Positions 10,350 through 35,132 of a DNA stretch of 64,000 nucleotides are shown here, piece after piece. Source of the stretch: Thermoanaerobaculia bacterium (lineage in GTDB: Bacteria; Acidobacteriota; Thermoanaerobaculia; UBA5066); NCBI GenBank assembly GCA_963816185.1, contig CAWFJJ010000030.1:320001-384000 (forward strand), written 5' to 3'. A model generated the notes under the pieces. That model worked only from the letters and a program-made list of their open reading frames with translations. It was not told the origin of the DNA and searched no databases. Both the position numbers and the translations under genes were made by a program. The first letter of the stretch is position 1; each line of letters begins with the position of its first letter.

Positions 10350-13058
10350 TTATGACGGCGGGTACCACCCGCGGCCCTCGAACCAGTACGTCGTCTGCTT
10401 CGCGAACGGCGACCTCGGGTAACGCCGGTGCAGATGCTCGAAAGCGGCTTTCGACAGCGCCCGCGTCTGGGCGTCCGCGCAGCCCTCGCGCGTCGCGCGC
10501 ACGGCGCGCGCGAGAAACTCGGGCGCGCGCGGGTCATCGGGGTGGCGCTTCGTGAACGCGAGCGCTTCGCGGCAGAACCACGTGGCGGCCGCACCCTCTT
10601 TCACGAACGCGTCGACCTCCTTCGCCGCCTCTTCCCGCTCGGCCGCCGTGAGGAAGGAGGGCGGGGGCACCGGAGGCGGGGGCACCGGGGGCTTCTGAAC
10701 CGGCGCTGAGCACCACCAGGCGATCGAAAAATCGGCATCGAGCACCACGTACGGGCGCATCTGGGAGTCCTCGAGCAGGACGGCGAGGGCCGCGTCGACG
10801 CGCCACTCCGGCCCGCCGAGCCTCGGCGCGCCATTCACGAGCGCCGCCATGCGCTGCGCGACGTCCAGTCGGCCGAGGAGAATCGCGCGCGTAAGGACGA
10901 CCTTGCGAAGTTTCTCCCGGGCAACAGGTTCGAGCGAGGACTCCTCGAAGAACCTGACGAGGCGATCGAGCGGAAACCAGGTGTTCAGGACCGTCTGGCC
11001 CGCTTCGTCGAAGAGGTCCTCCTTCCCTGCAATCTCCCCGTAGAGGTAGGCCGCGCGCCGAGGAGCCGCCAAAATGAACTCCTCGAACGTCGTCGCGTTC
11101 CTGAGCTCGAGGTCGAGGAACAGGTTCGTCGCCGACGACCCTGCGGCCTGCGCCTTCGCGATCGTCTCCGCGACAATCTTCCGCGCTTCGGCGCGCCGAC
11201 CGGCTTTCGTCTCGAGGTCCGCGAGATGGTACGCAAAATGGACGCGGCCGGGCGCGTTCCGGGGGAGTCGCCGGACGGCTTCCGCGATCTCCGCATAGCG
11301 GGGATGATCCGGCGAGATCTTCGCGACGACGGCGGCGAGCCAGTGGTTCGCGCGCGTCCGTGTCCAGCCCTCGAGCGCCCGGTCGAGCCCGGACGGCCCC
11401 TTCGTCTGAAACGCCACGATCCAGCTCGTCAGGTCGTCCTGAGGGTCGGGCACGTAGCGTTCGCCTTGGGGGTCGCCCGGCCCCAGGCCGAGCACCCGGG
11501 CCAGGAGATCACGGTAGTGGACGAAGGAGACCGCGAACTCGGCCTCGTCCTGCGGCTTCAGGACTCGCGCGGCGGCGGAGGCCACATGCGAGTCCGGTTC
11601 GAGATGCAGCTCGACGAACCTGAGGAGGTCCTCCGACCAGCGCCGGAGCTCCGGGGTCTTTGCACCGTCCCGAACTGCGATGAACCGCGCGCGCGCCTCG
11701 GCGAGAAGCCGGAGGTAGTCTGTCTTCTCGCCGGAGCCGAGCGTCGCCTGCCGAAGAACTGCCCGTGCCGCGAGGTAAGGAGCGATCTCGCGCCAGGGAG
11801 AAGACGCATCGTTGGCGATCTCCTCGAAGCCTTTCTGCGCCAGTTCGAGGCGCCCCGCGTAGAAGCTCGCCGACGCGAGCTGGTAGGCGCGGTCGGCGCG
11901 GAGCGGCGCCGGAGCCGAGGCGGGGAGGTATTCCGGGAAAGAAGGTTTCTCGTCGGAGCAGTTCGCGAACACGGTCTCCTGCGCCGCGAGCCAGCCCCGC
12001 GTCTCGGGAGAGTCCTTGCCATACCGTCCGACGTAGCTTTGGAGCGTTTTCGCCGCGCGCTGGAAGGCATCGTCCCCGCAGTTCAAATAGGAGGAGTAGC
12101 CGACCCAGCGATCCTTGGCGACCCCCGGCCCTTTTGCCCCAGTCGCCGCCTCGCGTGTCGCCATCCACGCATCCGCACCGGGCGAGCCCGGTTCCTGCCC
12201 CTTCCAGTAGGCGAGCGCGGCAGCCTGCTCTCCAGGGCCGAGCGGGATGCCGGCGAGGTAGCGGTACGACACGACGAGGTAGGCACGGATCCACGTCGGC
12301 TGGAGGACGCCCAACTCGCCGGCGGCTTCGAAACGCGGTTCCGTCCACCCCACGGCCGAGAAGAGGTACACGCGGCCGAAGGTCCGCACGAAAGGTTCGT
12401 CCGTCGCGAGCCCCGTCGCCGCCCGGCACTCCGTCGCGAAGCCGTCCGCCGTCGCGCGTGCTCGGATCGCGGCGGCGTCGGGCCCCATCTGGAAGAGCAT
12501 CGGGACAACCTCGTCGACACGCAGGGCTTCGAGCCATCGGTCCCCCACGCACCACGACGCGAGCGCCGTGAACGACAGGCCGAGGCGCTGGTCGAGCCGC
12601 CCGCGCAGCTCGGTGAGCACGGCGCGGAAGAATTTGCGCTCGGAAAGAGTCGCGTCGCCGTCGATCTGGACGGCCGAGACACGCGGGAGGCGCGCAGCAG
12701 AGAGCGCAGCCGCGACGACGGCCTCGCGCTGCGAACCCGACAGGGCGGCCCGGCGACCGCGGGAGATTTCGACTCGCACCACGGCCATGACCGGAGTCGT
12801 CTCATCCACGAGGAGAGGCTGACGCCGGCGGACGACGTGCGCCGCGTCCCCCGAAAGCCGGACGGTCGCCGCGAGAAACGCGACGCCCGCGTCCCGTCCC
12901 GCCAGAAAGCGCAGGTCTTCGGGGCGCTCCCAGGCCCAGATTACGGTCCGAGGGAAGTCGCCGAACGGGGAACCTCCGAAGAGAGAACTTCTTAGAAAGA
13001 GAAGAGCGAGCGCCGCGGCGATCATGCTCCGCGGGAGTGCGAACGGGTTGCCAGCCAT
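10350..13058 (-). CDS. Exported protein: DUF3142-like TIM-barrel-type N-terminal domain fused to a large helical-repeat domain
   Basis: WAWERPEDL, QIDGDA, ALASWC, DEVVPMLFQMG in the N-terminal third; TPR-like helices and LHRRYPRSPFAKQTTYWF at the C-terminus; start uncertain (13058 or 13025). Confidence 0.7.
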   Translation of the reverse strand: MAGNPFALPRSMIAAALALLFLRSSLFGGSPFGDFPRTVIWAWERPEDLRFLAGRDAGVAFLAATVRLSGDAAHVVRRRQPLLVDETTPVMAVVRVEISRGRRAALSGSQREAVVAAALSAARLPRVSAVQIDGDATLSERKFFRAVLTELRGRLDQRLGLSFTALASWCVGDRWLEALRVDEVVPMLFQMGPDAAAIRARATADGFATECRAATGLATDEPFVRTFGRVYLFSAVGWTEPRFEAAGELGVLQPTWIRAYLVVSYRYLAGIPLGPGEQAAALAYWKGQEPGSPGADAWMATREAATGAKGPGVAKDRWVGYSSYLNCGDDAFQRAAKTLQSYVGRYGKDSPETRGWLAAQETVFANCSDEKPSFPEYLPASAPAPLRADRAYQLASASFYAGRLELAQKGFEEIANDASSPWREIAPYLAARAVLRQATLGSGEKTDYLRLLAEARARFIAVRDGAKTPELRRWSEDLLRFVELHLEPDSHVASAAARVLKPQDEAEFAVSFVHYRDLLARVLGLGPGDPQGERYVPDPQDDLTSWIVAFQTKGPSGLDRALEGWTRTRANHWLAAVVAKISPDHPRYAEIAEAVRRLPRNAPGRVHFAYHLADLETKAGRRAEARKIVAETIAKAQAAGSSATNLFLDLELRNATTFEEFILAAPRRAAYLYGEIAGKEDLFDEAGQTVLNTWFPLDRLVRFFEESSLEPVAREKLRKVVLTRAILLGRLDVAQRMAALVNGAPRLGGPEWRVDAALAVLLEDSQMRPYVVLDADFSIAWWCSAPVQKPPVPPPPVPPPSFLTAAEREEAAKEVDAFVKEGAAATWFCREALAFTKRHPDDPRAPEFLARAVRATREGCADAQTRALSKAAFEHLHRRYPRSPFAKQTTYWFEGRGWYPPS

Positions 13059-13084
13059 GTCTCCCGCATTCTCTTACCTTTCTA
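12989..13084. repeat. Palindromic mini-element copy 1 (degenerate)
   Basis: TAGAAAGAGAAGAG (12993-13006) vs CTCTTACCTTTCTA (13071-13084), 12/14 complementary; left arm begins TTCTTAGAAAG. Confidence 0.4.
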
Positions 13085-13155
13085 CGCTCTTCTTGCTCCA
13101 TTCCGGATCCGCGCATCCGCCGAGGATCAGCGCCTTGCGGTTATCCTCAGGCGCA

Positions 13156-13782
13156 ATGCGCCTCGTCGCCGACAACCTCTCGCGCTCCTTCGGGCGCCGT
13201 GCCTTCGGGCCGGTCTCGTTCAGCGTCGAGACGGGTCGGGTCCTCGGCATCGCGGGAGAGAACGGGAGCGGAAAGACGACTTTGCTGAAGACCCTCGCAG
13301 GCTTGATTCGGCCAAGCGGAGGGCGCGCGAAGATCTTCTTAGATGATGAAAAGGCAGGGGATGGCCATGAGCCGCGCGATATTCCCTGGCGCATCGGGTG
13401 GGTGGCGCCGGATCTCGCCCTGTACGGAGAGCTGACGGCCGAGGAGAACCTGACCTTTTTCGAAAGGGTCCGCGGCCTCGTGTCGGATCCCGATCGGGTA
13501 CGCGCGCGGCTCGAGGGCGTCGGCCTACCGCTCGAATCCCATTCTCAGAAATCTCTCTCCTCTCTCTCCACGGGCCAACGCCAACGGGTCAAGCTCGCCT
13601 TTGCGACGCTGCACGAGCCCGACCTTCTCCTCCTCGACGAGCCGGGCGCGAATCTCGACGAGGCAGGGCGCTCCATCGTTCAGAAGGTCGTCGCGGGGCA
13701 GCGGATCCGGGGCATCACCGTGATCGCCTCGAACGACCCGCGCGATCTCGCGCTCTCGGATGAGAGAGTGACTCTCTCGTGA
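13156..13782 (+). CDS. ccmA: Heme exporter ATP-binding protein CcmA
   Basis: GENGSGKT Walker A, LSTGQRQR signature, LLLLDEP; overlaps ccmB; ATG at 13156. Confidence 0.85.
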   Translation: MRLVADNLSRSFGRRAFGPVSFSVETGRVLGIAGENGSGKTTLLKTLAGLIRPSGGRAKIFLDDEKAGDGHEPRDIPWRIGWVAPDLALYGELTAEENLTFFERVRGLVSDPDRVRARLEGVGLPLESHSQKSLSSLSTGQRQRVKLAFATLHEPDLLLLDEPGANLDEAGRSIVQKVVAGQRIRGITVIASNDPRDLALSDERVTLS

Positions 13783-14480
13783 GCGCGCCGCGCGCGGCTG
13801 CCGGAACCGTGCCGGCGGCCATCGCCGTGCTCCGGCGGGAGCTCCTCGCGGAGTGGCGGACGCGCGTGGCCGTGAACTCGCTCTTCCTCTTCGCCTTCGC
13901 CGTGCTCGTCCTCGTCGCCTACGCCGTGGGCCCGACGCGCCTCTCGCCGGAAGACAGGCCCACCGTGAACGCCGTCCTCCTCTGGATCGTCCTTTTCTTC
14001 TCGGCGATGACGGGTCTCTCGCGCACGTTCGTTCACGAGGAGGACGCCGGCACCGCCGCGGCCCTGCGGCTGTCGGCGCCTCCATCCGGAGTCCTCCTCG
14101 GAAAGCTGCTCGCGAACGTGGCGCTGCTCGGCGCGGTGACCGCCTTCATCGTGCCTCTCTTCGTCGTCCTCATGGGCTTCGAGATCAAGGATCCGCCGCT
14201 CTTCGTCGTCCTGCTCCTGCTCGGGACATTCGGACTCGCTTCGGCGTCCACGTTCACGGCGGCTCTCGTTTCGAAGGCGAGCGCCAAAGGCGCGCTCTTC
14301 GCCGTGCTGGCGATCCCGCTCCTCCTCCCGCCTCTCGTCGGCGCCGTCCTCGCGACGCGGGTCGCGGCGACGCAGGCGGAATTCTCGGCCGGGCTCGATT
14401 TCGCGCGGCTCCTCGTCGCTTACGACGGCGTCGTCACGACGGCCTCTTTCCTGCTCTTCGACGCCGTCTGGCGCGAGTGA
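13779..14480 (+). CDS. ccmB: Heme exporter permease CcmB
   Basis: Six TM helices, RTFVHEEDAGT...LLGKLLAN, VLAIPLLLP. Confidence 0.9.
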   Translation: MSAPRAAAGTVPAAIAVLRRELLAEWRTRVAVNSLFLFAFAVLVLVAYAVGPTRLSPEDRPTVNAVLLWIVLFFSAMTGLSRTFVHEEDAGTAAALRLSAPPSGVLLGKLLANVALLGAVTAFIVPLFVVLMGFEIKDPPLFVVLLLLGTFGLASASTFTAALVSKASAKGALFAVLAIPLLLPPLVGAVLATRVAATQAEFSAGLDFARLLVAYDGVVTTASFLLFDAVWRE

Positions 14481-14483
14481 TCC

Positions 14484-15737
14484 GTGGCTGAAGCCGGCGC
14501 CCTTCCCGGCCTCCTCGAAGTGGCCACGATGGTCCACCTCGTTCTCGGGATGCTGCGCGCCGTCCTCGGCTCCCGCGGCACCAAGGCGAAGATCGCTTCC
14601 TTTCCGTCGTTCCTCGCGGCGACGACACCGTGGATCTTCCCGGGGACCGTCGCGGTGCTCGCCGTCGTCCTCGCCGACCTTTTCTGGTACGCCGCAGCCG
14701 GCTTTCTCCTGCGCGGCCGTGAAACCGCCCCGCCGGCGCGGCGCCCGACGCCGACGACGACGCTGCGCGTTCTCGGCGTGCGGCGCGAGACCGACGAGAT
14801 CCGGACCTTCCGGCTCGAGCGCCCGCCGGGCTTCGACTTCCAACCCGGGCAGTACCTTACGGTCGTCGTGCCCGTCGAGGGCAAGCTCGTCTCGCGCTGC
14901 TACTCGATCTGCTCTGCGCCGGACGAGACCGGGCACCTCGAGATCTCCGTGCGGCGGCAGGGCCTCGTCTCGGCGGCGCTGCACGAGAGCGTCCGCTCGG
15001 GGGGCGCGATCGCGGCGCGTAAGCCGGCCGGAAAATTCGTCTACCCGGGAGACAGCCAGCGGCCGATCGTCCTGCTCGGCGGCGGAGTCGGGATCACGCC
15101 GCTCCTCGCGATGCTCCGGCACGCGGCCGCCGCCGATCCCGGCCGTGAGGTCACGCTCCTCCTCTCCGTCCGCACGGGCATGCAGATTCCCTTCAAGGCC
15201 GAGCTCGACGACCTAGGCCGGCGCCCCGGACTGCGTGTCGTCGTCACGGCCACGCGGGGCGGCGCCGTGCCTCCCGTCCGTTCGGGCCGGCTGGACCTCG
15301 ACTTCGTGAAGCGCGAGATCCGCGACCCGGCAGCCTGCGTCTTCTGTATGTGCGGCCCCGGGGAGATGATCGAAGGTTTCAAGAAAGGCCTCCCGACGCT
15401 CGGCGTGCCGCCCGGACAGGTGCGAGCCGAGGCGTTCGAGGCAGCCAAGCACGGGCCGGGAGCGCACACGGCGGCCGGGCCCTTCACGCTCGAGCTGACG
15501 GTGAGCGGAAAGACCGTGATTGTCGCCCCCGGGGCGACGCTTCTCGAGGCGGCCGAGGCGGCGGGGGCTGACATCCCCTCGTCCTGCCGCGCCGGCGTCT
15601 GCCAGACCTGCCGGACCAGAGTGGTCTCGGGCGACGTCGACTGCCCCGCCGACTGCACCGACGACGCGGACCGGCGCGACGGCTGGATCTACCCGTGCGT
15701 CGCCTGGCCGAAGTCGAACTGCACGCTCGAAGCCTGA
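14484..15737 (+). CDS. FNR-family FAD/NAD(P)-binding oxidoreductase with C-terminal 2Fe-2S ferredoxin and N-terminal hydrophobic anchor
   Basis: FQPGQY, RCYSICS, GGGVGITP, MCGP, CRAGVCQTC...C; ~75 hydrophobic residues at the N-terminus. Confidence 0.9.
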   Translation: MAEAGALPGLLEVATMVHLVLGMLRAVLGSRGTKAKIASFPSFLAATTPWIFPGTVAVLAVVLADLFWYAAAGFLLRGRETAPPARRPTPTTTLRVLGVRRETDEIRTFRLERPPGFDFQPGQYLTVVVPVEGKLVSRCYSICSAPDETGHLEISVRRQGLVSAALHESVRSGGAIAARKPAGKFVYPGDSQRPIVLLGGGVGITPLLAMLRHAAAADPGREVTLLLSVRTGMQIPFKAELDDLGRRPGLRVVVTATRGGAVPPVRSGRLDLDFVKREIRDPAACVFCMCGPGEMIEGFKKGLPTLGVPPGQVRAEAFEAAKHGPGAHTAAGPFTLELTVSGKTVIVAPGATLLEAAEAAGADIPSSCRAGVCQTCRTRVVSGDVDCPADCTDDADRRDGWIYPCVAWPKSNCTLEA

Positions 15738-15746
15738 TTCGTGATC

Positions 15747-15761
15747 TGAGACACAGTCTCA
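15747..15761. promoter_or_regulatory. Palindrome TGAGAC-N3-GTCTCA, candidate activator (enhancer) site
   Basis: Perfect 6-bp inverted repeat ~100 bp upstream of the candidate sigma54 element; overlaps a CRP/FNR-like CGTGA-N6-ACACA (15740-15755). Confidence 0.4.
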
Positions 15762-15857
15762 ACGTTAGGCTCGGACACTTTGAGATAAAGCCGAGCCGAG
15801 GCTCGGACTGTCCGGTACGTACGCTTCGGCGTCCCATTTGCCCATCGGCTGCATCTC

Positions 15858-15873
15858 GGGAACAGATCTTGCT
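15858..15873 (+). promoter_or_regulatory. Candidate sigma54 (-24/-12) promoter
   Basis: GGGAACAGATCTTGCT fits TGGCAC-N5-TTGCW with exact GG-N10-GC spacing; AAGGAG RBS follows at 15901. Confidence 0.5.
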
Positions 15874-15915
15874 TTTCGGGAGCAGATTCCGGATTTTTGA
15901 AAGGAGTACAGGGGA

Positions 15916-16902
15916 TTGGACTACGTGGCGAACCCGAAGAAGGGTACCCGTCGGATCTCCGCCTCGCCTCCAACATTCCTCGGTCCCTCCTCCGTCGTCC
16001 CGACGCTCACTGCCGCACGCGCCGCCTCCGCGAAGGTGAAGCGCGACGCCTGGCTTCCGATGGCCTCCCTCTCGCACGCCCTCGCCCTCGCATTCCTCGT
16101 GAGCCTCGGCCTCGTCGCCTTCGTGTTCGTGAAGCTGGGCGGATGGCAGTACTACTTCGCTCCGGAGGCGACACGCGGCTACATCCCGGCACACAAGCTC
16201 CTACACCCCGCCGGGCGCGCCGGCGAGATGTTCGGGATCGCGGGCCTCCTCATCATGTGCATGACCCTCGTCTACGCCGCGCGCAAGAAGTTCCGCGGCC
16301 TCTCGAAGATCGGCACGACGAAGACCTGGCTCGAGATCCACATCTTTTGCGGCCTCGTGGGTCCCGTGCTCGTGACGCTCCATACCGCGATGAAGTTCAA
16401 CGGCGTCGTCTCGATCGCGTACTGGTCGATGATCCTCGTCGTCCTGTCCGGCTTCATCGGGCGCTATCTCTACGTGCGGATCCCGAAGACGCTTCGCGGG
16501 ACCGAAATCTCTCTCGAGGAGCTCGACGCGCGCGCCATCGAGCTCAAGGGCCAGCTCGCGGCCGAAGGTCTTGCGACCGTCCTTCTACGCCGGATCGAGG
16601 AGCTCGAGCAAGGTTCACGCTCGGGGGGCTTCATCCTCGGGGACTTCAGGCTCGGACGAGGACTCGCTCAGCTCCACAAGGAGCTCGCTCAGGCCGGTAT
16701 TTCGCCTACGCGCCTCGTCGCCGCCGACCGGCTCATCCGCGAGCGGGTGACGCTTCTCAGGCGCATCGCGACGCTCGACACCTCCAAGAAGCTCTTCCAC
16801 CTCTGGCACGTCTTCCACAAGCCGTTCGTCTACGTGATGCTCGCGATCGCCGCGGTCCATGTCGCGGTCGCGCTGTACTTCGGCTACGCGGGCCACTGGT
16901 GA
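15916..16902 (+). CDS. Inner-membrane protein with conserved His pairs, ferric-reductase-like / putative b-type cytochrome
   Basis: TM helices with WLEIHIFCGLVGPVLVTLH and WHVFHKPF...AAVH; stop overlaps the cytochrome start (GTGA). Confidence 0.75.
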   Translation: MDYVANPKKGTRRISASPPTFLGPSSVVPTLTAARAASAKVKRDAWLPMASLSHALALAFLVSLGLVAFVFVKLGGWQYYFAPEATRGYIPAHKLLHPAGRAGEMFGIAGLLIMCMTLVYAARKKFRGLSKIGTTKTWLEIHIFCGLVGPVLVTLHTAMKFNGVVSIAYWSMILVVLSGFIGRYLYVRIPKTLRGTEISLEELDARAIELKGQLAAEGLATVLLRRIEELEQGSRSGGFILGDFRLGRGLAQLHKELAQAGISPTRLVAADRLIRERVTLLRRIATLDTSKKLFHLWHVFHKPFVYVMLAIAAVHVAVALYFGYAGHW

Positions 16903-19900
16903 GGGCACGCCTCCTCGGGCTCGCGTCGGTCCTCGCTTCGCTCGTGCTGGCGGCACACGCGGACGCGCAGGGCCTCGGGACCCTCGTCTCCCCTGGCAAG
17001 CTCTCGAAGGCGCACGCGAACCTCGAAGGCCTCGACAAGTGCCAGACCTGCCACGAGCCGGGCCGCCAGGTCACCGCCGCCAGGTGTCTCGCCTGCCACA
17101 AGCCCGTCGCCGAGCGCATCAAGGCGAAGAAGGGAGTCCACCGGAACGCCACGGGCGACGACTGCGCGAGCTGCCACGTCGAGCATGCAGGTCTCGACGG
17201 AGACCTCCGTCACTTCACGCCGAAGGGCTTCGACCACACGGGCGAGGCCGGGTTCGCTCTCGACGGCCTCCACGCGCCGCTCGAGTGCAATACCTGCCAC
17301 AAGACACGCTCGTACCTCGGCCTCTCCGCGTCGTGCGCCTCCTGCCACAAAGACGTCCACAACGGGACTCTCGGCGCAACGTGCCAGACGTGCCACGCGA
17401 CGAGCGTCGCCTTCAAGGACACGCGAAAGGGGTTCGACCACTCCCGGACGAAGTACCCGCTGACCGGCGCCCACACGAAGACTCCCTGCGAGAGCTGCCA
17501 CAACGTCAAGGGCGAGTACCGAATCGCGCGCTTCGCCGTCTGCGAGGGCTGCCACAAGAACCCCCACCAGCCGGCGCTCGGGACGTGCACGACGTGTCAC
17601 GTCACGACGAGCTTCAAGGAGCCCGCTGAGGGCCGGAGGTTCGACCACGCGAAGACGGGCTATCCGCTCCGCGGCCGCCACGCGAGCGTCGCCTGCCAGA
17701 CGTGCCACGTGAAGCCGGCGACGGTCGTGCGCCTCAGGTACGCGCGCTGCGCCGACTGCCACCAGGACGTCCACAAGGGCCTCTTCCCCCGCGAGGATTG
17801 CGCGTCCTGCCACACGGAGAGCGGGTTTGCGCCCGCGAAATTCGATCATGGGACGCGCACGAAGTTCCCCCTCGACGGCAAGCACGCGGCCACGCCTTGC
17901 CTTGCCTGCCATAAGCAGGCGGGAGCACAGGTGCGTGCTCCCCGCGCGCAGCGGGTCGTCGACTTCCGCGGCGCGAAGGCGGCGTGCGCCTCCTGCCACA
18001 AAGACGCCCACAAGGGGAAGCTCGGCTCGAGCTGCCAGACCTGTCACGGAACGACCTCCTTCAAGGTTTCGGAGTTCCGGCACCCGCGCCAGCCCGAGTT
18101 CTTCGAGGGCGCGCATGCGGGCGTCGCGTGCGAGAAGTGCCATCTCCCGGAGCCGGCGTCCCGAACCGACCTCGCGAAGGGCGCCGCGGCACCCGCGGCC
18201 GCGCGGCAGTACAGAGGCGTGTCGTTCCAGTGCGCGAGCTGCCACAAGGACCCGCATCTCGGGCAGGTGGGTCCGGACTGCGCGGCGTGCCACAGCCTCG
18301 CGACGAAGGGCTACAAGCCCGACCTCTTCGTCCACACGCGCGCGAAGTTCGCGCTCACGGGCAAACATGAGACGGTCCCTTGCGCGAAGTGCCACGCGAA
18401 GGAGACCGGGACGTTCCCCGCGGGCAAAGGCACGGCGGTCCGCCTCACGGGCCTCTCGACGGAGTGCCGAACCTGCCACAAGGACCCGCACCTCGGGCAG
18501 CTTTCGCCGCGCTGCGAGACGTGCCACGACGCCGCATCGTTCCGGATCGCGAAGTTCACGCATCCCGCGAAGAAGGAGACCGAGGGCTTCTTCGTCGGCA
18601 AGCATGCGGCGATCGCATGCGCCGAGTGCCACCCGAAGGAGACGATGGATTACCCCGCGGGCCGCGGAACCGCCGTTCAATATTCGGTCCCGGTCGATTG
18701 CGCGCACTGCCACGAGGACGCGCACAAGGGCGCCTTGGGGCGCGACTGCGCGTCCTGCCACAACGCGAACCAGTGGCGGACCGCCTCGCGCGCCTTTCAC
18801 AAAACAGCCGCCTTCTCGCTCGAGGGCAAGCACATCTCGGTCCCGTGCGCGTCCTGCCACCTGAAAGGCGTCCTCAAGGGCACGCCCACGGGCTGCTACG
18901 ACTGCCATTGGATCCGCAAGCCCGACGACCGCTTCAAGACGAAGCTCGGGAGCGACTGCCAGACGTGCCACCGGCCGATCGGCTGGACCGCCGTCACGTG
19001 GAGCCACACGTCCGCGACGGGATTCACGCTCGAGACGCCCCACAAGACGCTCGACTGCGAGTCCTGCCACAAGAGTCAGGTCTTCCCGGGGACGCCCCGG
19101 GACTGCTACTCCTGCCATCGGGCGGACTACGAGCGCGTCCAGAACCCGAACCACGTCGCAGGCGGCTTCCCGACGGATTGCACCGGTTGCCACAAACCGA
19201 CTGCCCCGACGTGGCGGGGCGCGACGTTCACCCACGCGACCTTCCCGCTCGCCGGCGTCCACGCGACGCAGGCCTGCGCCTCGTGCCACGTGAACAACAT
19301 CTACAAGGGAACGCCGCGCGACTGTTTCTCCTGCCATCGGACGGACTACCAGAATTCGAAAAACCCGCCCCACGCTGCCGCCGCGTTCCCGACCACGTGC
19401 GACTCGTGCCACAAATTCTCCGATCCGAACTGGCAGGGCGCGGGTTTCAACCACAACTCGGCGACGACGTTCCCGCTGGTCGGGCCGCACGTCACGGCGC
19501 CGTGCGCAAGCTGCCACGTCAACGGCAACTACACGACCGTCCCGACGACCTGCTACGGCTGCCACCAGAAGGACTCGGCGGGCGCCACGACTCCGGTGAA
19601 CCATTCCGGCCTGCCGACGACGTGCGAGAGCTGCCACAAGAACACGGACACGACCTGGCTGCTGGCGACGGCCTTCAACCACTCGACGTACTTCGCGCTG
19701 GCCGGCGCCCACGTCACCGCAGCTTGCGCCCAGTGCCACACGAACGGCAACTTCACGACCCTGCAGTCGACCCCGACGCCTTGCGCGACCTGCCACCAGA
19801 ACGACTACAACACGGCGAAGACGCCCGTGGACCACGTCGCGTCAGGCTTCTCGACCACCTGCGACTCGTGCCACAAGTTCTCCGACACGACGTGGATGCA

Positions 19901-21931
19901 GGCGACGTTCAGCCATACGACCTTCCCGCTGGTCGGCGTGCACGCGACGACGCCCTGCGCGACGTGCCACAACCCCCCGTATGCCCCTTCAGCCAACAAC
20001 TACACGACCGTCCCGACGACCTGCTACGGCTGCCACCTGAAGGACTCGGCGGGCGCCACGACTCCGGTGAACCATTCCGGCCTGCCGACGACGTGCGATT
20101 CCTGCCACAAGAACACGGACGCGACCTGGTCGCTGGCCACGGCCTTCAACCACTCGACGTACTTCGCGCTGGCCGGCGCCCACGTCACCGCAGCTTGCGC
20201 CCAGTGCCACACGAACGGCAACTTCACGACCCTGCAGTCGACCCCGACGCCTTGCGCGACCTGCCACCAGAACGACTACAACACCGCGAAGACGCCCGTG
20301 GACCACGTCGCGTCAGGCTTCCCGACCAACTGCGACTCGTGCCACAAGTTCTCCGACACGACGTGGATGCAGGCGACGTTCAGCCATACGACCTTCCCGC
20401 TGGTCGGCGTGCACGCGACGACCGCCTGCGCGAGCTGCCACGTCAACAACAACTACACGACCGTCGCGACGACCTGCTACGGCTGCCACCAGAAGGACTC
20501 GGCGGGCGCCACGACTCCGGTGAACCATTCCGGCCTGCCGACGACGTGCGATTCCTGCCACAAGAACACGGACGCGACCTGGTCGCTGGCCACGGCATTC
20601 AACCACTCGACGTACTTCGCGCTGGCCGGCGCCCACGTCACGGCGCAATGCGCCCAGTGCCACACGAGCGGCAACTTCGTCAGCGTGCCCAAGAGCCCGT
20701 GCTCGGCGTGCCACCAGAACGACTACAACAACGCGAAAACGCCGGTGAACCACATCGCGTCGAGCTTCCCGACCACCTGCGACTCGTGCCACAAGTTCTC
20801 CGACGCGACGTGGATGCAGGCGACGTTCAGCCATACGACCTTCCCTCTCGTCGGCGTACACGCGACGACCGCCTGCGCGAGCTGCCACGTCAACAACAAC
20901 TACACGACCGTCGCGACAACCTGTTACGGCTGCCACCAGAAGGACTCGGCGGGCGCTACGACTCCGGTGAACCATTCCGGCCTGCCGACGACGTGCGACA
21001 GCTGCCACAAGAACACGGACGCCACCTGGCTCTTGGCCACGGCCTTCAACCACTCGACGTACTTCGCGCTGGCCGGAGCCCACGTCACGGCGGCCTGCAC
21101 CCAGTGCCACACGAGCGGGAACTACGTCAGCGTGCCCAAGAGCCCGTGCTCGGCGTGTCATCAGACGGACTACAACAACGCCAAGACGCCCGTGAACCAC
21201 GTCGCGTCGAGCTTCCCGACCACCTGCGACTCGTGCCACAAGTTCTCCGACGCGACGTGGATGCAGGCGACGTTCAGCCATACGACCTTCCCGCTGGTCG
21301 GCGTGCACGCGACGACGCCCTGCGCGAGCTGCCACGTCGCCAACAACTACTCCACCGTCCCGACGACCTGTTACGGCTGCCACCAGAAGGACTCGGCGGG
21401 CGCCACGACTCCGGTGAACCATTCCGGCTTGCCGACGACGTGCGACAGCTGCCACAAGAACTCGGACACCACCTGGCTGCTGGCGACGGCCTTCAACCAC
21501 TCGGCATACTTCGCGCTCGCTGGCGCCCATGTCACGGCGGCCTGCACCCAGTGCCACAACCCCCGAAGCGCGAAAACTACGTCAGCGTGCCCACGAGCCC
21601 GTGCTCGGCGTGCCACCTCCCCGCCTACCAGACCGCGACGACTCCCGTGAACCACATCGCGGCGGCCTTCCCCACGACCTGCGACACGTGCCACAAGTTC
21701 TCCGACACGACGTGGCTGCAGGGCGTCTTCAACCACACGTACTTCCCGCTGGTCAGCAATCACAACGTGCCGTGCAACCAGTGCCACACCACCGCCGGCA
21801 CCTACGCGGTCTTCAACTGCATCAGCTGCCACACGGCCGCCAAGACAAACGGGGATCACTCGGGCGTCAAGGGCTATGTGTGGGCGTCGACGGCCTGCTA
21901 CTCCTGCCACCCGAACGGACGAGGCGGCTGA
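16899..21931 (+). CDS. Giant exported multiheme c-type cytochrome, 66 CxxCH motifs (~1,680 aa), 1-nt frameshift at C-run 21560-21564
   Basis: Signal peptide ending AHADA|Q; 61 CxxCH counted in frame 15897..21650 from GTG 16899, plus 5 in frame 18380..21931; one extra C restores NPPKRENYVSV. Confidence 0.93.
19460..21740 (+). repeat. Five near-identical tandem hexaheme repeat units inside the cytochrome gene
   Basis: Anchor GACTCGGCGGGCGC at 19572, 20043, 20496, 20943, 21390; periods 471, 453, 447, 447 bp, all in frame; boundaries approximate. Confidence 0.92.
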
Positions 21932-23217
21932 TGCGCCGCCGCCTCGCGATTCTCGCGGCCCTCCTAGTCCTGAGGGCCCCGGCCGCGGCGCAGTCCGCCC
22001 TCGACCTCGGCCGCATCGCCGTGTTCGGCCAGGTCCTGCGGTCGAAGAACGACGACGGGACGACGACGGCCTACAACGAGCTGACCGCTTCGGTCACGCT
22101 CCACACGCCGCCGCGCGACACAGACGGGGTCGAGTTCTCGATCGACGCGCGCGGCTCTGAGTACCCGTCCGTCGCAAACCGCGATCCGCACCTGACCGTC
22201 TATGACGCCTGGGTCGGCGGGCATCTCGCGGGCGGCCACCTGGCCGTGCGGCTCGGTCAGATGTACCTGAACGACCTCGGTGCCCTTGGAGGCGTGGGCG
22301 GTGCCGCGCTCGAAGGCCGAACCGGTAAGGTCCGGTTCGGCCTCTTTGGCGGCCTCGAGCCGAAGGGTTTCGACGCGGGCTACGTCGCGGATGTCAGGAA
22401 GGGCGGTGCGTACGTCGCTTATGACGGGGAGCGCGGCTGGCACGACGCCCTCGGTTTCGTCACGATCCGCGACCAGGGACTCGTTGAGCGGAATGTCCTC
22501 TCGACGACGAACTTCATCCCGGTCGGCAAAGAGTTCTTTCTCTACCAGGCCGCCGAGTACGATCTGACCGGGCCGGGAGGCGTCGGGAGCGGCGGCCTCG
22601 CCTACGTCTTCGCGACGGCCCGCTGGGCCCCTGCCAGGACGTTCGAGATCCAGGGCCAGTACCAGCACGGGCGCTCGATCGACGCGCGCTCGATCACGCA
22701 GGACCAGCTCGCGGGCCGCCCGGTGGACGCGAAGAGCCTTCAAGGTTTTCTCTTCGACTCGATGGGCGGGCGCGCGACCGTGGAGTTTGCCCGCGGCTGG
22801 CGGGTCTGGGGCGGCTACTACCAGGACAAGAACAATCGCGACGACATCGCGTCGAACCGCTGGCAGTTCGGCCTGTCCGCGATGAACGTCCTCGGGTCGG
22901 GGTTCGATGCATTCGCCTCGGACAACCGGACGATCCGCCCGGGAAGCTCCAGCTACGACGCGTGGTACTTCTCTCTCGGGCGCAGCCTCGGCTCCCGTCT
23001 CTACCTGACCGTGGACTACTCGACCTCGCTGTCCGTGCTGCAGCTGACCGATTCGGGGGGCCTCACGGTCGTGAACCGGCCCTCCTCGAGACGCTACAGC
23101 CTCTCGGGAACGTTCAACGTCACTCGCGCGTTCTCCGTCTTCGTGACGGCCGAGCAGCTCGTCGACGACACGTCGAAGGAGAACCGGGGCCTCTTGGGCC
23201 TATCGTTCCGTTTTTGA
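21931..23217 (+). CDS. Outer-membrane beta-barrel protein (putative porin partner of the multiheme cytochrome)
   Basis: Signal peptide MRRRLAILAALLVLRAPAAA|Q, amphipathic aromatic-rich beta strands, C-terminal LGLSFRF; TGATG coupling to the cytochrome. Confidence 0.85.
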   Translation: MRRRLAILAALLVLRAPAAAQSALDLGRIAVFGQVLRSKNDDGTTTAYNELTASVTLHTPPRDTDGVEFSIDARGSEYPSVANRDPHLTVYDAWVGGHLAGGHLAVRLGQMYLNDLGALGGVGGAALEGRTGKVRFGLFGGLEPKGFDAGYVADVRKGGAYVAYDGERGWHDALGFVTIRDQGLVERNVLSTTNFIPVGKEFFLYQAAEYDLTGPGGVGSGGLAYVFATARWAPARTFEIQGQYQHGRSIDARSITQDQLAGRPVDAKSLQGFLFDSMGGRATVEFARGWRVWGGYYQDKNNRDDIASNRWQFGLSAMNVLGSGFDAFASDNRTIRPGSSSYDAWYFSLGRSLGSRLYLTVDYSTSLSVLQLTDSGGLTVVNRPSSRRYSLSGTFNVTRAFSVFVTAEQLVDDTSKENRGLLGLSFRF

Positions 23218-23280
23218 TACGGAGTCTCTGAAGCAAGCAGACTAATGGGGAGCGGGCATCCGGGCGTTATGATCCTCGCC

Positions 23281-23946
23281 GTGAAGACCCTCGGTTTCGC
23301 CGGCAAGTGGTTCCTGGGACTCGGGATGGCTGTGATTTGCTGGGCCGCCTTCCTCTGGGCCCGTCCCGCCCAGAACTTCGTCGGCGAGTCCTCGAGGATC
23401 GTCTTCTTCCACGTGCCGATGGCGTGGGTATCCACGCTCGCTTTCTTCCTCGCCGCCTGGCATTCGGCCGTCTATCTGAAGAACCGCCGGATCGAGAACG
23501 ACGACGCCGCGGCCGGCGCGGCGCGGCTCGGTTTCGTGTTCTGCGTTCTGGCCACGGTCACCGGCTCGATCTTCGCCCGCGTGATGTGGAACTCGTACTG
23601 GAACTGGGACCCCCGCGAGACGTCCATCGTGCTCCTGCTCCTCGTGTACGGCGCGTATCTCGGCCTGAGAGGCGCGCTCGAGGACCCCGAACGTCGCGCG
23701 ACGCTCTCGGCGGCGTACGCGCTCGTGGCGGTCGTGACCGTTCCTTTCCTGACTTTCGCCGTCCCCCGCATGTACCAGTCGCTGCATCCCGACACCGTCC
23801 TCAACGCGCGAGGAAAGGTCGAAATGTCCGCGGACATCCAAACCGTTTTCTTCTCCTCCATGGTGGCTTTCATGATCTTGTTCTTCTGGATGTGGAATCT
23901 CGACCGGCGGGTGTCCCGTATCGTCCGCGAGAGGGCGACGGCGTGA
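23281..23946 (+). CDS. ccmC: Heme exporter / cytochrome c biogenesis protein CcmC
   Basis: FFHVP, WNSYWNWDPRE (WWD motif), SLHP; start taken as GTG 23281, 7 nt after TATGAT (ATG 23245 is the alternative). Confidence 0.92.
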   Translation: MKTLGFAGKWFLGLGMAVICWAAFLWARPAQNFVGESSRIVFFHVPMAWVSTLAFFLAAWHSAVYLKNRRIENDDAAAGAARLGFVFCVLATVTGSIFARVMWNSYWNWDPRETSIVLLLLVYGAYLGLRGALEDPERRATLSAAYALVAVVTVPFLTFAVPRMYQSLHPDTVLNARGKVEMSADIQTVFFSSMVAFMILFFWMWNLDRRVSRIVRERATA

Positions 23947-24071
23947 GCGGGGCTCTCGGGTACGTCGCGGCGGTCAACATCGTGATCTGGGCCGGAATCT
24001 TCGGCTACCTCGTCTATCTCGACCGGAAGGTCCGGGCCGCCTCGGGGCCCGGGCAGGAGAAACCCCGATGA
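23943..24071 (+). CDS. ccmD: CcmD-like small membrane protein
   Basis: 42 aa, YVAAVNIVIWAGIFGYLVYLDRKVR, overlapping ccmC and ccmE. Confidence 0.75.
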   Translation: MSGALGYVAAVNIVIWAGIFGYLVYLDRKVRAASGPGQEKPR

Positions 24072-24466
24072 AACGTGCTTACTGGGCCGGCGCCCTCCTC
24101 GTCGTCGGCTTTCTCGCCCTCGGTCTGTCCACGTTCACGCGCTCGATGACGCCTTACGTCTCCTTCGCCGAGGCGAAGGCCGCGCCGCGCACGGTCCAGG
24201 TGATGGGCGCCCTCGAAAAGGGCACGTCGCGTTACGACACAGCCTCGAAAACGCTCTATTTCACGCTCCTCGACCCGAAATCGCACGAGTCGATTCCCGT
24301 CTCCTACACGGACGTGAAGCCCGCGAATTTCGAGGACGCCGTGTCCATCGTGGCGATCGGCCGGTACGAGGGCGGCGTCTTCGCCGCAGAGAAGCTTCTC
24401 GTCAAGTGCCCGTCCAAGTACCAGGGCGAGGAAATCGAAAAACAGTACGGCGCCAAAAAGGCCTGA
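24068..24466 (+). CDS. ccmE: Heme chaperone CcmE, CxxxY variant
   Basis: N-terminal TM, YTDVKPANF, LLVKCPSKY. Confidence 0.92.
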   Translation: MKRAYWAGALLVVGFLALGLSTFTRSMTPYVSFAEAKAAPRTVQVMGALEKGTSRYDTASKTLYFTLLDPKSHESIPVSYTDVKPANFEDAVSIVAIGRYEGGVFAAEKLLVKCPSKYQGEEIEKQYGAKKA

Positions 24467-24475
24467 GGACACCCC

Positions 24476-26929
24476 ATGAACAATCTCCCCGGAATTCTCG
24501 GCTTCGCGCCGGGCACGCTCGCGATTTGGGCGGCCATGCTCTTCGGCGTCACGTGCATGCTCGCCTACCTGCGTTCGATGCGCAGCACGGGATTCGCAGC
24601 CGGGGATTTTCTTAGAAAGGGTAAGAGGGGCTCCCGTGCGGTCGCAGCAACGGCCGATCCGGGCGACCTATTACCATTCGAAGAAAATTCTCTTTCTCCT
24701 AATCTCTTCTTCGCCCGGCGCCTGTATTACGCCTACGTCTTCTCGGTCCTTCTCGCGTCGTTCCTCCTTCTGACGCGGCTCCTCTCGCACGACTTCCGCA
24801 TCTCATACGTGGCGTCGTACTCGGGGCGCGACCTGCCGTTCTATTACCTCTTCTCGACGTTCTGGGCAGGGCAGGAGGGCTCGTTCCTGCTCTGGCTCTT
24901 CTGGGGCGCGCTCATCGGGCTGTTCGTTCTGAGGTCCGCGAAGGAGCAGGAAGCTCCCGTGATGGTGATCTACGTCGCGTCGTTCCTCGGAATCGTCGCG
25001 ATCCTCGTCAAGCAGTCGCCGTTCCGGTTCCTCGCGCAGATCCCGCCGGACGGCCAGGGCCTGAACCCGCTCCTGCAGGACCCGTGGATGGTCATCCACC
25101 CGCCGGTCATGTTCTCTGGGTTCGCGTCCCTCTCGGTGCCGTTCGCGTTCGCGATCGGCGCGCTCTGGATGAAGCGCTGGGACGGCTGGGTCGTCCGCGC
25201 CATGCCGTGGGCGCTCTTCACGTTCGTCACGCTCGGCACCGCGATCCTGATGGGCGGGTATTGGGCCTACAAGACGCTCGGCTGGGGCGGCTACTGGGGC
25301 TGGGATCCGGTCGAGAACACGTCCCTCGTGCCATGGCTCGCGACGGTCGCGCTCGTGCACGGAATGTTCCTCCAGAAGATGCGCGCCAAGCACCGCAAGA
25401 TCAACATCATTCTCGCGATCCTCGCTTTCTGCTGCATCCTGTACGGCACGTTCCTGACTCGCTCCGGAGTTCTCGCGGACTTCTCCGTTCACTCCTTCAT
25501 CGATCTCGGGATCACCGGGTGGCTCGTCGGGATCATCGTCGTCTTCCTCGTCGGCGGCCTCGCCCTCCTCGCATGGCGCTGGAAGGAGATCCCGGTCGTC
25601 TCCGACCTGGACGCGACGACCGGCAAAGAGAAGGAAGAGCCGTTCCTGTCACGGTCGGTCCTCTTCATCCTCTCCGTGACGCTCTTCTGCGCCTCGGGCC
25701 TCGTCATCCTCCTCGGGACCTCGGCTCCGATCCTGACGCGTGTCCTGGGCAAGCCCTCGCAGGTCGCGACGAGCTTCTACAACGTCACGCACCGGCCGAT
25801 CGCGGGTCTCATGGCCCTGCTTCTCCTTCTCGTGCCGTACCTGTCATGGCGCGGCGAGAACGGAAAGGGCGTCCTGAGAAAGGCCCTCGTCCCGGGCGCC
25901 GTGGGACTCCTCAGCGTCGGAGTCTTCTTCTCGGCGGGCGTGCGCGGGGCGGGCGACCTCCTGATCCTCGCTCTCGCGGTGGCCGGGTTCGTCGCGAACG
26001 CCGAGACCGCGGTCCTCTTCGTGAGGCGCAGGGCCGTCAAGACCATGGGCGGATATCTCGCGCACATCGGCATGTCGATCATGCTCGTGGGCATCCTCAT
26101 CTCGGGCGTCTACGAGAAGAAGACGACGGTGAACCTCTTCAAGAACCAGCCGGTCACCGTCGGGAGCAACACCTTCACGTTCACGCGCACCGTCTTCGTC
26201 ACGGACAGCGGCGAGGTGAAGCGTTTCGAGGAGCTCAACGCGGCCGACCCCTCCGACCGCCGCGCCAAACAGGCGATGGAGGTCGAGGTTTCGTCGCCCG
26301 GGCGCAGCGTCTGGAAGGCCTATCCGAAGCTCTACACGAACACGCGCACGAACCAGATGATGGCGAACCCCGACGTGAAGTCGTCGCCGCTCATGGACCT
26401 CTACGTCTCCCCGCAGGCTTACGACCCGGGGCGATCCGCGCACATCGAGGGCACGACGCTCGCCCTGAGGAAGGGCGAGTCGAAGACCGTCGACGGCGTC
26501 AAGGTGAAGTTCCTCGACTTTTCCGCCGACCGCTCGCAGGTGTCGTCGGACCGGCCGCGAGTCACCGTGACGGGCAATTTCCTCGTGACGACCGCCGAAG
26601 CCTCCGAGGAGAAGACCGCCCGGCTCGTCATGTACTTCGGCGGAGCGTCGGCGGAGTCCGCGACGGAGTCACCGGAGACGCCTCTTCCCGGAAAAGGCCG
26701 CTTGAAGATTCTCAAGGTGTCGCCGAACGAAGGCACATGCGAGATCGAGCTCCTCGGTGTCGCTCCGGGCGGAGACCTCAAGCCGGCGACGGCCGAGACC
26801 TTGTCCGTCGACCTCACGACGAAGCCGCTGATCTCCCTCGTGTGGGGAGGCTTCTACGTGATGATGGCGGGCGGCCTCCTGGCGCTCGTGCGCCGCGCCC
26901 GCGATTCGCGCCAGGCGGCGATCGCCTAG
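24476..26929 (+). CDS. ccmF: Cytochrome c heme lyase CcmF
   Basis: WAGQEGS, GLNPLLQ, IHPP, WGGYWGWDPVEN, SVHSF, KPLISLVW. Confidence 0.95.
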   Translation: MNNLPGILGFAPGTLAIWAAMLFGVTCMLAYLRSMRSTGFAAGDFLRKGKRGSRAVAATADPGDLLPFEENSLSPNLFFARRLYYAYVFSVLLASFLLLTRLLSHDFRISYVASYSGRDLPFYYLFSTFWAGQEGSFLLWLFWGALIGLFVLRSAKEQEAPVMVIYVASFLGIVAILVKQSPFRFLAQIPPDGQGLNPLLQDPWMVIHPPVMFSGFASLSVPFAFAIGALWMKRWDGWVVRAMPWALFTFVTLGTAILMGGYWAYKTLGWGGYWGWDPVENTSLVPWLATVALVHGMFLQKMRAKHRKINIILAILAFCCILYGTFLTRSGVLADFSVHSFIDLGITGWLVGIIVVFLVGGLALLAWRWKEIPVVSDLDATTGKEKEEPFLSRSVLFILSVTLFCASGLVILLGTSAPILTRVLGKPSQVATSFYNVTHRPIAGLMALLLLLVPYLSWRGENGKGVLRKALVPGAVGLLSVGVFFSAGVRGAGDLLILALAVAGFVANAETAVLFVRRRAVKTMGGYLAHIGMSIMLVGILISGVYEKKTTVNLFKNQPVTVGSNTFTFTRTVFVTDSGEVKRFEELNAADPSDRRAKQAMEVEVSSPGRSVWKAYPKLYTNTRTNQMMANPDVKSSPLMDLYVSPQAYDPGRSAHIEGTTLALRKGESKTVDGVKVKFLDFSADRSQVSSDRPRVTVTGNFLVTTAEASEEKTARLVMYFGGASAESATESPETPLPGKGRLKILKVSPNEGTCEIELLGVAPGGDLKPATAETLSVDLTTKPLISLVWGGFYVMMAGGLLALVRRARDSRQAAIA
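24605..24689. repeat. Palindromic mini-element copy 2, in frame inside ccmF
   Basis: ATTTTCTTAGAAAGGGTAA (24606-24624) vs TTACCATTCGAAGAAAAT (24671-24688); AT-rich arms in a GC-rich gene. Confidence 0.55.
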
Positions 26930-26952
26930 ACTCTCCCTCTCGAGGAGAACCC

Positions 26953-35064: not shown

Positions 35065-35132
35065 TCTTGCTTCCCTCTCGAAGAGACAGGATCTCACAAA
35101 CCTGCTGCGCCTCGGCGCACCGTCGGGGCGCT

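Follow-up and report, generated by a model that had tools for sequence, protein, structure and literature searches.

What does a cell do with a single polypeptide that carries 66 heme-binding motifs? The question is raised by a gene at 16899-21931 (forward strand) in a GC-rich (64-73%) stretch of 64,000 nucleotides from a Thermoanaerobaculia bacterium (GenBank assembly GCA_963816185.1, contig CAWFJJ010000030.1, positions 320,001 to 384,000), referred to here as the window and numbered from its first base. Proteins of this size are known only as motif counts in surveys. The answer that we favour, with a probability of about 0.55, is that this cytochrome would be secreted and rod-like and would serve as the wire in a conduit that spans the cell envelope and draws its electrons from cytoplasmic NAD(P)H. 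A preliminary description of the gene had proposed that it encodes a one-gene nanowire; the cytochrome is, however, accompanied by conserved inner- and outer-membrane partners, which suggest a variant of the porin-cytochrome theme with quinone-independent entry.

The gene begins with a GTG at 16899 that overlaps the TGA of the upstream open reading frame as GTGA, and its product opens with a 24-residue Sec-type signal peptide (16899-16970, +) that ends A-H-A-D-A-Q and contains no Cys, hence no lipobox; the N-terminus is conserved among homologs. Read through a frame break near its 3' end with XX at the break, 16899-21931 encodes 1,677 residues, among them 132 Cys, 134 His and 6 Met. Every Cys belongs to one of 66 CxxCH motifs, two per motif, and a motif search of the full 1,677 residues found no CxxxCH, CxxxxCH or CxxCK. 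When the residues of the protein were shuffled 1,000 times, the mean number of CxxCH was 0.8 and the maximum 5. The motifs are spaced with a period of three, and cutting after each third one yields 22 modules of 68-82 residues that align as F-x-H ... L-x-G-x-H ... CxxCH ... CxxCH ... H ... CxxCH. Exactly three spare His are found in 18 of the 22, the others being modules 1, 2, 8 and 9 with 2, 5, 4 and 2, respectively. The recount thus bears out the preliminary description on the 66 motifs, on their grouping into 22 triheme modules and on the three additional His that go with each group.

Bis-His ligation is the simplest reading of this inventory, because 68 His lie outside the motifs for 66 hemes and Met is so scarce; one spare conserved His is available per heme, and variant motifs are absent. 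Of the non-motif His in a 765-residue stretch with 30 motifs, 24 reach at least 90% conservation, or full invariance, among 65 family members. The earlier view that nearly all hemes are bis-His therefore stands as the simplest reading, and the protein is best described as 22 c7/c3-type triheme modules in which essentially all 66 hemes would be so ligated. The same pattern bears on whether the protein might instead be a catalytic multiheme reductase with a special heme at which nitrite, sulfite or a metal ion would be reduced. The sole match in the PDB that phmmer returned for the 1,554-residue protein is an octaheme nitrite reductase (8rv0, E 1.7e-4), and NrfA-type enzymes occupy the top, non-significant Foldseek rows for an AlphaFold2 (AF2) model of residues 306-1070 (predicted local distance difference test score, pLDDT, 74.9; predicted template modelling score, pTM, 0.32; no hemes modelled). 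Yet these matches cover motif-rich stretches only and the structural ones have E values of 1 or more, while the lack of CxxCK or variant motifs, the spare His in every module and the near absence of Met leave no open or unusual heme ligand evident. We consider a catalytic role extremely improbable.

The protein belongs to a widespread family of large multihemes that has already been reported and has no characterised members. Pfam PF14522 (Cytochrome_C7) matches 17 stretches with 238.2 bits against a cut-off of 24.8 (E 4.5e-72), with overlapping matches to c3-type families and to the MtrC/MtrF domain II/IV model; the MtrA/DmsE decaheme model TIGR03508 (73.6 bits, cut-off 192.2) and the NCBIfam HmcA model (35.9 bits, cut-off 400) remain below their thresholds. 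The protein had been likened to polymers of c7-type domains such as GSU1996 of Geobacter sulfurreducens (PDB 3OV0), a dodecaheme cytochrome of four c7-type triheme domains. The c7-type character is upheld by the Pfam score and by the shared tandem arrangement of triheme modules of about 75 residues, both proteins matching Cytochrome_C7. A specific kinship with GSU1996 is not: the two differ in heme number (12 against 66), there is no significant pairwise match (3ov0 was not found by phmmer against the PDB at E <=0.001 with the 1,554-residue protein), and its hexaheme fragment 3oue appears at Foldseek rank 13 with an E of 4. When a profile of the 21 intact modules was searched against the PDB, HmcA (1z1n, E 4.5e-7) came first and 3ov0 second (E 5e-7, six stretches), with OmcA, a nine-heme cytochrome, OcwA and MtrC close behind, so that GSU1996 is not singled out from HmcA, OmcA, MtrC and OcwA, which score about equally. 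The order of spare His and motifs in c7 domains also differs from that of the window module, and one heme per GSU1996 domain has His-Met ligation, whereas Met is nearly absent from the window cytochrome. GSU1996 is the only experimentally characterised c7-type wire (PMC11492766; this and the other reports are cited from excerpts of their text). HmcA of Desulfovibrio, with 16 hemes, resembles the window protein in its tandem c3/c7-type units and is the best PDB match of the module profile; its hemes are packed compactly and it is tied to the Hmc membrane complex. Its 16 hemes are the largest count in a solved single chain, as stated in the excerpt of bioRxiv 2025.05.29.656830.

A protein search returned at least 1,327 relatives at E <=0.001 with 8,000 candidates scored. 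The 120 best carry 41-97 CxxCH (median 57), and 30 of these 120 have 66 or more, so the heme count is not unique. Named entries among the homologs come from Thermoanaerobaculia, Holophagales, other Acidobacteriota and Ignavibacteriaceae. A genome scan with the cytochrome gave 79 loci, the closest of which (58-79% identity) are labelled Thermoanaerobaculia or Acidobacteriota, and the farther ones Terriglobia, Ignavibacteria, Bacteroidota, Calditrichaceae, Zixiibacteriota, Gemmatimonadota, Betaproteobacteria and others. Published surveys, in the excerpts at hand, report up to 87 CxxCH in Desulfuromonadia (PMC11492766), 112 in a Paludibaculum metagenome-assembled genome and many in Saprospiraceae, for which extracellular transfer or a capacitor function was suggested (PMC11495043), 3-116 in peat (preprint 10.64898/2026.05.27.727921) and 33-49 in Ignavibacteria and Burkholderiales from anodes (PMC7399161). 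All of these giants have been speculated to serve extracellular electron transfer or storage. They resemble the window protein in being secreted and in carrying tens to more than 100 CxxCH, and the reports, as excerpted, give counts and localisation predictions; in those excerpts we found no description of the module architecture, of the two-part design set out below or of inner-membrane partners.

Is the gene intact? Frame 0, the frame of the 16899 start, is open to 21650, but its final 30 residues are out-of-frame noise, and the database entry P0004 is this frame-0 version of 1,583 residues that reaches the out-of-frame stop at 21650. The conserved end of the protein is carried by a second frame with its stop at 21929-21931. 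The frame-0 part (16899-21572, +), defined by the frame reading and Pfam, holds 61 CxxCH, and the second-frame part (21563-21931, +) holds five together with a conserved C-terminal cap, ...C-Y-S-C-H-P-N-G-R-G-G. This ending is common to most of the 120 listed homologs, alignment A6 of the C-terminal region has 26 invariant columns, and the second-frame tail scores 29.8 bits on PF14522 by itself, above the cut-off. One base too few is present at 21558-21580 (+): 17 bases separate the CH codons (21552-21557) from the N-Y codons (21575-21580), where a multiple of three is needed. The break had been attributed to the C-run at 21560-21564. Loss from the A-run at 21573-21577 is more likely, because frame 0 still fits the orthologs through Ser-Ala (21567-21572), matching S-A-N-N-Y/F in L001, L002 and the protein's own module 14; relatives have AAC AAC where the window has the A-run. 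The recount gives 66 motifs with either placement of the missing base.

Most likely the break is an assembly or sequence error, because the second frame runs on for 122 codons without a stop and retains the C-terminal cap, because database homologs (P0006, P0007, P0013, P0029, P0036 and P0061) have out-of-frame tails at other places, and because the window has at least three further conserved genes that are broken. An Mrp/NUBPL-type ATPase is split into pieces at 34573-35136 and 33995-34225, a gamma-glutamyltranspeptidase (29533-31212 region) is spread over three frames, and an isocitrate/isopropylmalate dehydrogenase (3978-4664) is reduced to profile positions 169-348. With three conserved genes frame-broken, the contig appears to carry scattered indel errors. 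A programmed frameshift was considered and rejected, as relatives read straight through, homologs are broken elsewhere and no known slippery motif was recognised. Recoding of an in-frame stop in the gamma-glutamyltranspeptidase gene was likewise rejected, its TGA at 29530-29532 being the true end and that at 30001-30003 lying in the wrong frame after a frame change.

The 3' part of the cytochrome gene is a tandem array (19464-21754, +; Tandem Repeats Finder, 89% matches) of 5.0 copies of a 447-nucleotide unit, each of two modules and six hemes. The array and the frame break together invite the suspicion of an artefactual or dead gene, either over-expanded by misassembly or a decaying pseudogene, and the array does contain 53 repeated 100-mers. 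Over-expansion, which the preliminary description had named as a finding that would overturn it, is unlikely, however, because the pairwise identity of the units is 83.7-93.1% (a difference of 7-16%) and all exact repeats are shorter than 150 nucleotides. Synonymous and nonsynonymous codon differences in five comparisons between units (18:7, 5:5, 7:4, 10:6 and 2:4) are mixed but lean toward conservation of the protein, three of the five having a synonymous excess. The frame after the break is open and conserved, and the other broken genes point to sequence errors. Furthermore, one relative (L001) encodes 66 motifs in an intact single frame, and six more of the 79 loci reach the same total: L017, L053, L058 and L060 (20+46), and L049 and L067 in more pieces. 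This shared total is possibly coincidental. We hold a dead or artefactual gene to be very improbable.

The composition of the protein changes sharply along the chain. Lys and Arg together number 5-13 in each of modules 1-9 and 2-3 in each of modules 12-22, where Asp and Glu together number 2-4 per module and Ser, Thr, Asn and Ala make up a fraction of 0.38-0.48. The contrast between a basic N-terminal and a nearly uncharged C-terminal part, noted before, is thus seen in the composition of both modules and deciles, and it is mirrored by separate proteins in other phyla. The 20-heme protein of L017 (residues 26-528) aligns by blastp with residues 30-527 of the window protein at 34.7% identity (E 3e-110), and the 46-heme protein of the same locus aligns with residues 514-1677 at 38.8% identity. 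Because these two proteins are colinear with its parts, the window cytochrome reads as a fusion of two proteins, modules 1-7 (16971-18479, +; 21 hemes) corresponding to the separate charged 20-heme cytochrome of other phyla. In L017, L058 and L075 the charged 20-heme protein and the uncharged 46-heme (or 31+22+10-heme) proteins are separate genes, and across loci labelled Ignavibacteria, Bacteroidota and Calditrichota the separate charged and uncharged proteins each have their own signal peptide. Charged residues make up 20-35% of the 20-heme proteins, which are net basic, and 7-17% of the proteins that follow, in which Ser, Thr, Asn and Gln account for 31-43%. The suggestion that the two halves serve different compartments or partners gains support from this separation. 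Examples of the split form lie at 10001-14976 of L017 and 3580-10322 of L075.

Exactly two parts are present in 44 loci. The first carries 20 or 23 motifs in 39 of the 44 and the second carries 13-54; such a fixed first part and variable second part would fit a fixed gap plus a free end. In 36 of these 44 loci the first count is 2 mod 3 and the second 1 mod 3. The division between the genes cuts a module: by eye, the mature second protein begins with the P-H spare His and the third motif of window module 7. Judging by these sequences, the split wires may dock by completing the boundary triheme module in trans.

The 79 loci were chosen by the cytochrome alone and several are cut by contig ends, so that the following partner counts are lower bounds. 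An outer-membrane protein is encoded directly downstream of the cytochrome genes in 68 of the 79 (59 of a long type, 9 of the window type), a homolog of memb328, the five-helix membrane protein encoded before the window cytochrome, in 51, a 4Fe-4S (Fer4+Pyr_redox_3) flavoprotein in 50 and an FNR-type reductase in 3; one or the other flavoprotein is found in 53 and accompanies memb328 in 49. That two unrelated NAD(P)H-type flavoproteins stand beside the same membrane protein argues for a shared job, that of feeding electrons to memb328. In L017 and L058 (Ignavibacteria or Bacteroidota label) the order is a memb328 homolog, a small TPR protein, a 443-residue flavoprotein with an N-terminal helix, two 4Fe-4S motifs and a Pyr_redox_3 FAD/NAD domain, the 20-heme and 46-heme cytochromes, and a 545-592-residue outer-membrane protein ending R-Y or R-F. 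This set of parts is also present, differently ordered, in loci labelled Acidobacteriaceae, Calditrichaceae and Betaproteobacteria. A literature search found no published account of a cluster of flavoprotein, memb328, giant cytochrome and barrel; subscription journals were outside its coverage, and the result is not proof of absence.

Several loci show variations on these partners. L002 (7451-9745) and L044 (18079-20433) join flavoprotein and memb328 homolog in one open reading frame (765 and 785 residues), either as a genuine fusion or through an assembly frame error. L018 has, at 6359-7651 and upstream of its reductase and cytochrome, an open reading frame with an FNR-like FAD-binding segment and a His-rich, multi-helix C-terminal part that looks cytochrome-b-like by eye; this frame may supply that lineage with another membrane partner. 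In L031 (14856-17390) and about 24 other Terriglobia-type loci the outer-membrane protein has an N-terminal AMIN domain (Pfam 1.7e-11), a domain otherwise found in secretins and amidases, and these loci encode a 280-residue protein of no family between the outer-membrane protein and memb328.

The membrane protein memb328 (16060-16902, +; the ATG at 16060 fits the homologs, and a TTG at 15916 is an alternative start) has no Pfam or NCBIfam family above cut-off and falls in an unnamed ESM Atlas cluster. A profile search gave at least 1,175 relatives, nearly all called hypothetical and without a Pfam domain. An alignment of 33 homologs shows H94, H108, H250, H253 and H267 to be invariant, which gives two H-x13-H pairs (H94/H108 and H253/H267), and the AF2 model (pLDDT 85.6, pTM 0.74) is all-helical with the pairs in helices 87-109 and 216-276. 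By the positive-inside rule, each pair reads as having one His near the cytoplasmic and one near the periplasmic face. Such an arrangement is one fit to hold two b hemes across the membrane, and memb328 is likely to be a diheme cytochrome b. Single-sequence Pfam scans of the 33 members gave weak matches only, to DUF4405 in 19 of 33 (at E <=0.1; best member 1.4e-5), Ferric_reduct in 5 and Ni_hydr_CYTB in 3. According to the excerpt of PMC11334425, heme b binding has been demonstrated for DUF4405 proteins, which have four central His. With the diheme cytochromes b of the NOX/FRE ferric reductases, of MsrQ-Fre and of the flavinylation-associated DUF4405/PepSY-like group memb328 shares two His pairs on two helices at 13-residue spacing and a partner NAD(P)H flavoprotein, of FNR type or another; it differs in having five predicted helices and a cytoplasmic helical insert of about 100 residues rather than six helices, in scoring below every cut-off, and in having a giant c-type cytochrome as its outer partner where those systems have a flavinylated protein, MsrP or oxygen.

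The flavoprotein of the window, a membrane-anchored FAD/NAD(P)H reductase with a C-terminal 2Fe-2S ferredoxin domain (14484-15737, +; 417 residues), matches Pfam FAD_binding_6, NAD_binding_1 and Fer2 above cut-off; about 80 hydrophobic residues stand at the N-terminus of its translation, and it has orthologs in L008, L018 and L043. On the other side of the cytochrome lies a gene for an outer-membrane beta-barrel protein (21934-23217, +) of 427 residues, with a signal peptide and the ending F-R-F, whose orthologs directly follow the cytochrome in nine loci. The barrel has no Pfam or NCBIfam family, nor do the long outer-membrane proteins of L017 and L075. It falls in an unnamed ESM Atlas cluster whose nearest named clusters are outer-membrane beta-barrels (score 0.92, a lead only), and it is homologous to the C-terminal 340 or so residues of the outer-membrane protein of other phyla (hhalign 98.6%, E 1.1e-15, about 332 columns). 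Because the long and window types are homologous, a single outer-membrane family follows the cytochrome in the 68 loci. A complex prediction for barrel residues 22-427 (A5) with the last 121 residues of the cytochrome (A6) and four hemes scored 0.06 and 0.01 against a mark of 0.32; it covered the C-terminal cap only and was run without controls.

A rival to the conduit is a periplasmic electron store, which would buffer up to 66 electrons when acceptors are scarce and would leave the barrel to another use, such as the passage of a soluble acceptor or shuttle. Storage is one of two published proposed roles for very large multiheme cytochromes (excerpts of PMC11492766 and PMC11495043). The barrel domain seems too small to hold the chain, and the cytochrome is one Sec-exported polypeptide with no recognisable outer-membrane secretion signal. 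A purely periplasmic store leaves unexplained, however, the sharp and conserved shift to a nearly uncharged Thr/Ser/Asn-rich part, which is a separate protein in other phyla, as well as the outer-membrane protein gene that follows the last cytochrome gene in so many loci. We regard a store as unlikely, and the two roles do not exclude each other.

Motif counts, modules, composition, family size, the conserved gene order, the invariant His of memb328 and the kinship of the outer-membrane proteins are direct observations. For the conduit, we infer heme ligation, the b hemes, the NAD(P)H donor, the direction of flow, the localisation of the two halves and the crossing of the outer membrane from sequence features. 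A membrane-anchored cytoplasmic Fe-S flavoprotein would oxidise NAD(P)H, here the FNR-type protein with FAD, NAD and 2Fe-2S domains and in most relatives a protein with a transmembrane segment, two 4Fe-4S clusters and an FAD/NAD domain. Its Fe-S cluster would reduce the inner heme of memb328, and electrons would cross the inner membrane without the quinone pool. The outer heme of memb328 would then reduce the first module of the cytochrome, whose basic N-terminal third (about 21 hemes) would cross the periplasm, and the uncharged Thr/Ser/Asn-rich remainder (about 45 hemes) would reach, pass through or extend beyond the outer membrane, helped by the barrel. The extracellular acceptor would be metal oxides, humics or other cells. 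The ten hemes of MtrA span 104 Å (excerpt of PMC4245776). At that pitch 20-23 hemes would extend about 21-24 nm, and all 66 about 65-70 nm if straight. The shorter of these lengths is near the width of the periplasm.

The same parts allow a broader and more tentative proposal, one that we think possible rather than probable: a cross-phylum export pathway that would bypass quinones, running from the flavoprotein through a new five-helix diheme b family to a fixed, basic periplasmic wire of 20-23 hemes and on to a variable, uncharged extracellular wire of 13-54 hemes with a dedicated barrel. The two wires would be fused as a 66-heme chain in the Thermoanaerobaculia-type form, and docking of modules in trans would be possible where they are separate.

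Might electrons flow the other way, from Fe(II), reduced humics, cathodes or partner cells inward to NAD(P)+ or ferredoxin? In principle, chains of bis-His hemes and diheme b proteins can carry electrons either way, and neither the domain content nor the His pattern of the partners fixes a direction. Inward flow against the inside-negative potential onto NAD(P)+ would, however, be uphill for most environmental donors, the cluster has no carbon-fixation or oxidase partner, and the named relatives come from groups described, in excerpts of published reports, as iron reducers or anode-associated. Electron uptake therefore appears improbable.

Several observations weigh against an outward conduit of the kind proposed here. 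The barrel domain of about 340 residues is doubtfully large enough to sheathe a triheme rod; MtrB is much larger. Export of NAD(P)H electrons without quinones would not conserve energy by itself. Five of the closest relatives (L001, L003, L005, L006 and L007) have ccmB directly before the cytochrome and neither memb328 nor a flavoprotein within 10 kb, so the inner-membrane module is not obligatory beside the gene, and in the window itself a gap of 178-322 nucleotides with a hairpin/T-run (15875-15893, +) parts the reductase gene from memb328. The window memb328 stays below cut-off for both DUF4405 (15.9 bits, cut-off 26.7) and Ferric_reduct (14.4 bits, cut-off 28), and Foldseek of its model against the PDB gave no match at E <=0.001, the best being E 0.11 with unrelated helical bundles on top. 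The cytochrome model, with its pTM of 0.32, also gave no Foldseek match in the PDB at E <=0.001. Finally, the frame break could be a true mutation and this copy a pseudogene.

How far does the proposed conduit resemble known ones? The MtrCAB system of Shewanella and the Pcc system (OmaB/OmbB/OmcB) of Geobacter likewise have a periplasmic multiheme cytochrome gene beside an outer-membrane beta-barrel gene, and the split relatives share with them a pair of cytochromes of periplasm type and surface type. This porin-cytochrome logic is described in the excerpt of PMC4245776. There is no shared sequence family, as the scores on the decaheme models (73.6 against 192 bits) and the lack of a Pfam family for the barrel indicate. 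The window system also differs in heme numbers 5-6 times larger, in the fusion of the two cytochromes and in an entry that is apparently formed by a flavoprotein and a diheme b protein. Entry to Mtr and Pcc is through a quinol dehydrogenase (CymA, ImcH or CbcL).

Were the proposed conduit correct, soil and sediment Acidobacteriota, Ignavibacteria, Bacteroidota and others would share a route for dumping cytoplasmic reducing power outside the cell, with an inner-membrane entry unlike that of the Shewanella and Geobacter models, and this would bear on iron and humic reduction and on the suppression of methane in soils and peat. The fixed-plus-variable design offers a testable idea, that of a cell measuring out a periplasm-spanning wire and then extending it outside, and the family offers natural protein wires of graded length (13 to more than 90 hemes) for bioelectronics.

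The cytochrome and its partners sit within a set of genes for the attachment of heme to cytochromes of the c type. All six ccmABCDEF genes surround it, the cytochrome and its partners being inserted between ccmB and ccmC on the same strand, and the closest relatives (L001-L003 and L005-L008) keep the order ccmB, cytochrome, barrel, ccmC/E/F. Upstream are a ccmA-like ABC ATPase (12823-13779, +, stop to stop with the true start inside; Pfam ABC_tran 2e-27, and TIGR01189 ccmA as best NCBIfam model at 2.1e-32, below cut-off) and the heme exporter permease ccmB (13764-14480, +; Pfam CcmB 5.1e-22, 78.8 bits against a cut-off of 24.9). Downstream follow ccmC (23245-23946, +; Pfam Cytochrom_C_asm 2.9e-27; TIGR01191 1.5e-32, below cut-off), ccmD (23943-24071, +; 42 residues; TIGR04391 CcmD family, 34.4 bits against 24), a Cys-type ccmE (24068-24466, +; best NCBIfam CcmE model 3.2e-12, below cut-off) and the heme lyase gene ccmF (24476-26929, +; 817 residues; Pfam Cytochrom_C_asm and CcmF_C above cut-off). 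The junctions are tight: memb328 and the cytochrome overlap by GTGA, 2 nucleotides separate the cytochrome from the barrel gene and 27 the barrel gene from ccmC. A promoter scan of 12000-27500 found no sigma-70-like site, and the same region holds 15 terminator-like sites against 8.7 expected, none convincing within the cluster except the hairpin at 15875-15893.

The gap at 15738-16059 is unusually long and also holds a perfect palindrome (15791-15806); it could contain an internal terminator or a regulatory site. The CcmE at 24068-24466 has C-P-S-K-Y in place of the canonical heme-binding H-x-x-x-Y. Cys-type CcmE proteins occur in archaea and Desulfovibrio-like bacteria. In CcmF the Pfam models reach about residue 573 of 817, leaving a C-terminal extension of about 240 residues unexplained. 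Farther away in the window are a 1,195-residue CHAT protease-TPR protein (43735-47319) and, at 5246-8074, 57087-58727, 62550-63998 and 48747-50609, the remaining notable genes: those for two Ser/Thr kinases (one with TPR repeats), an FHA+RDD protein and a Vgb_lyase-propeller protein with two DUF7933 domains.

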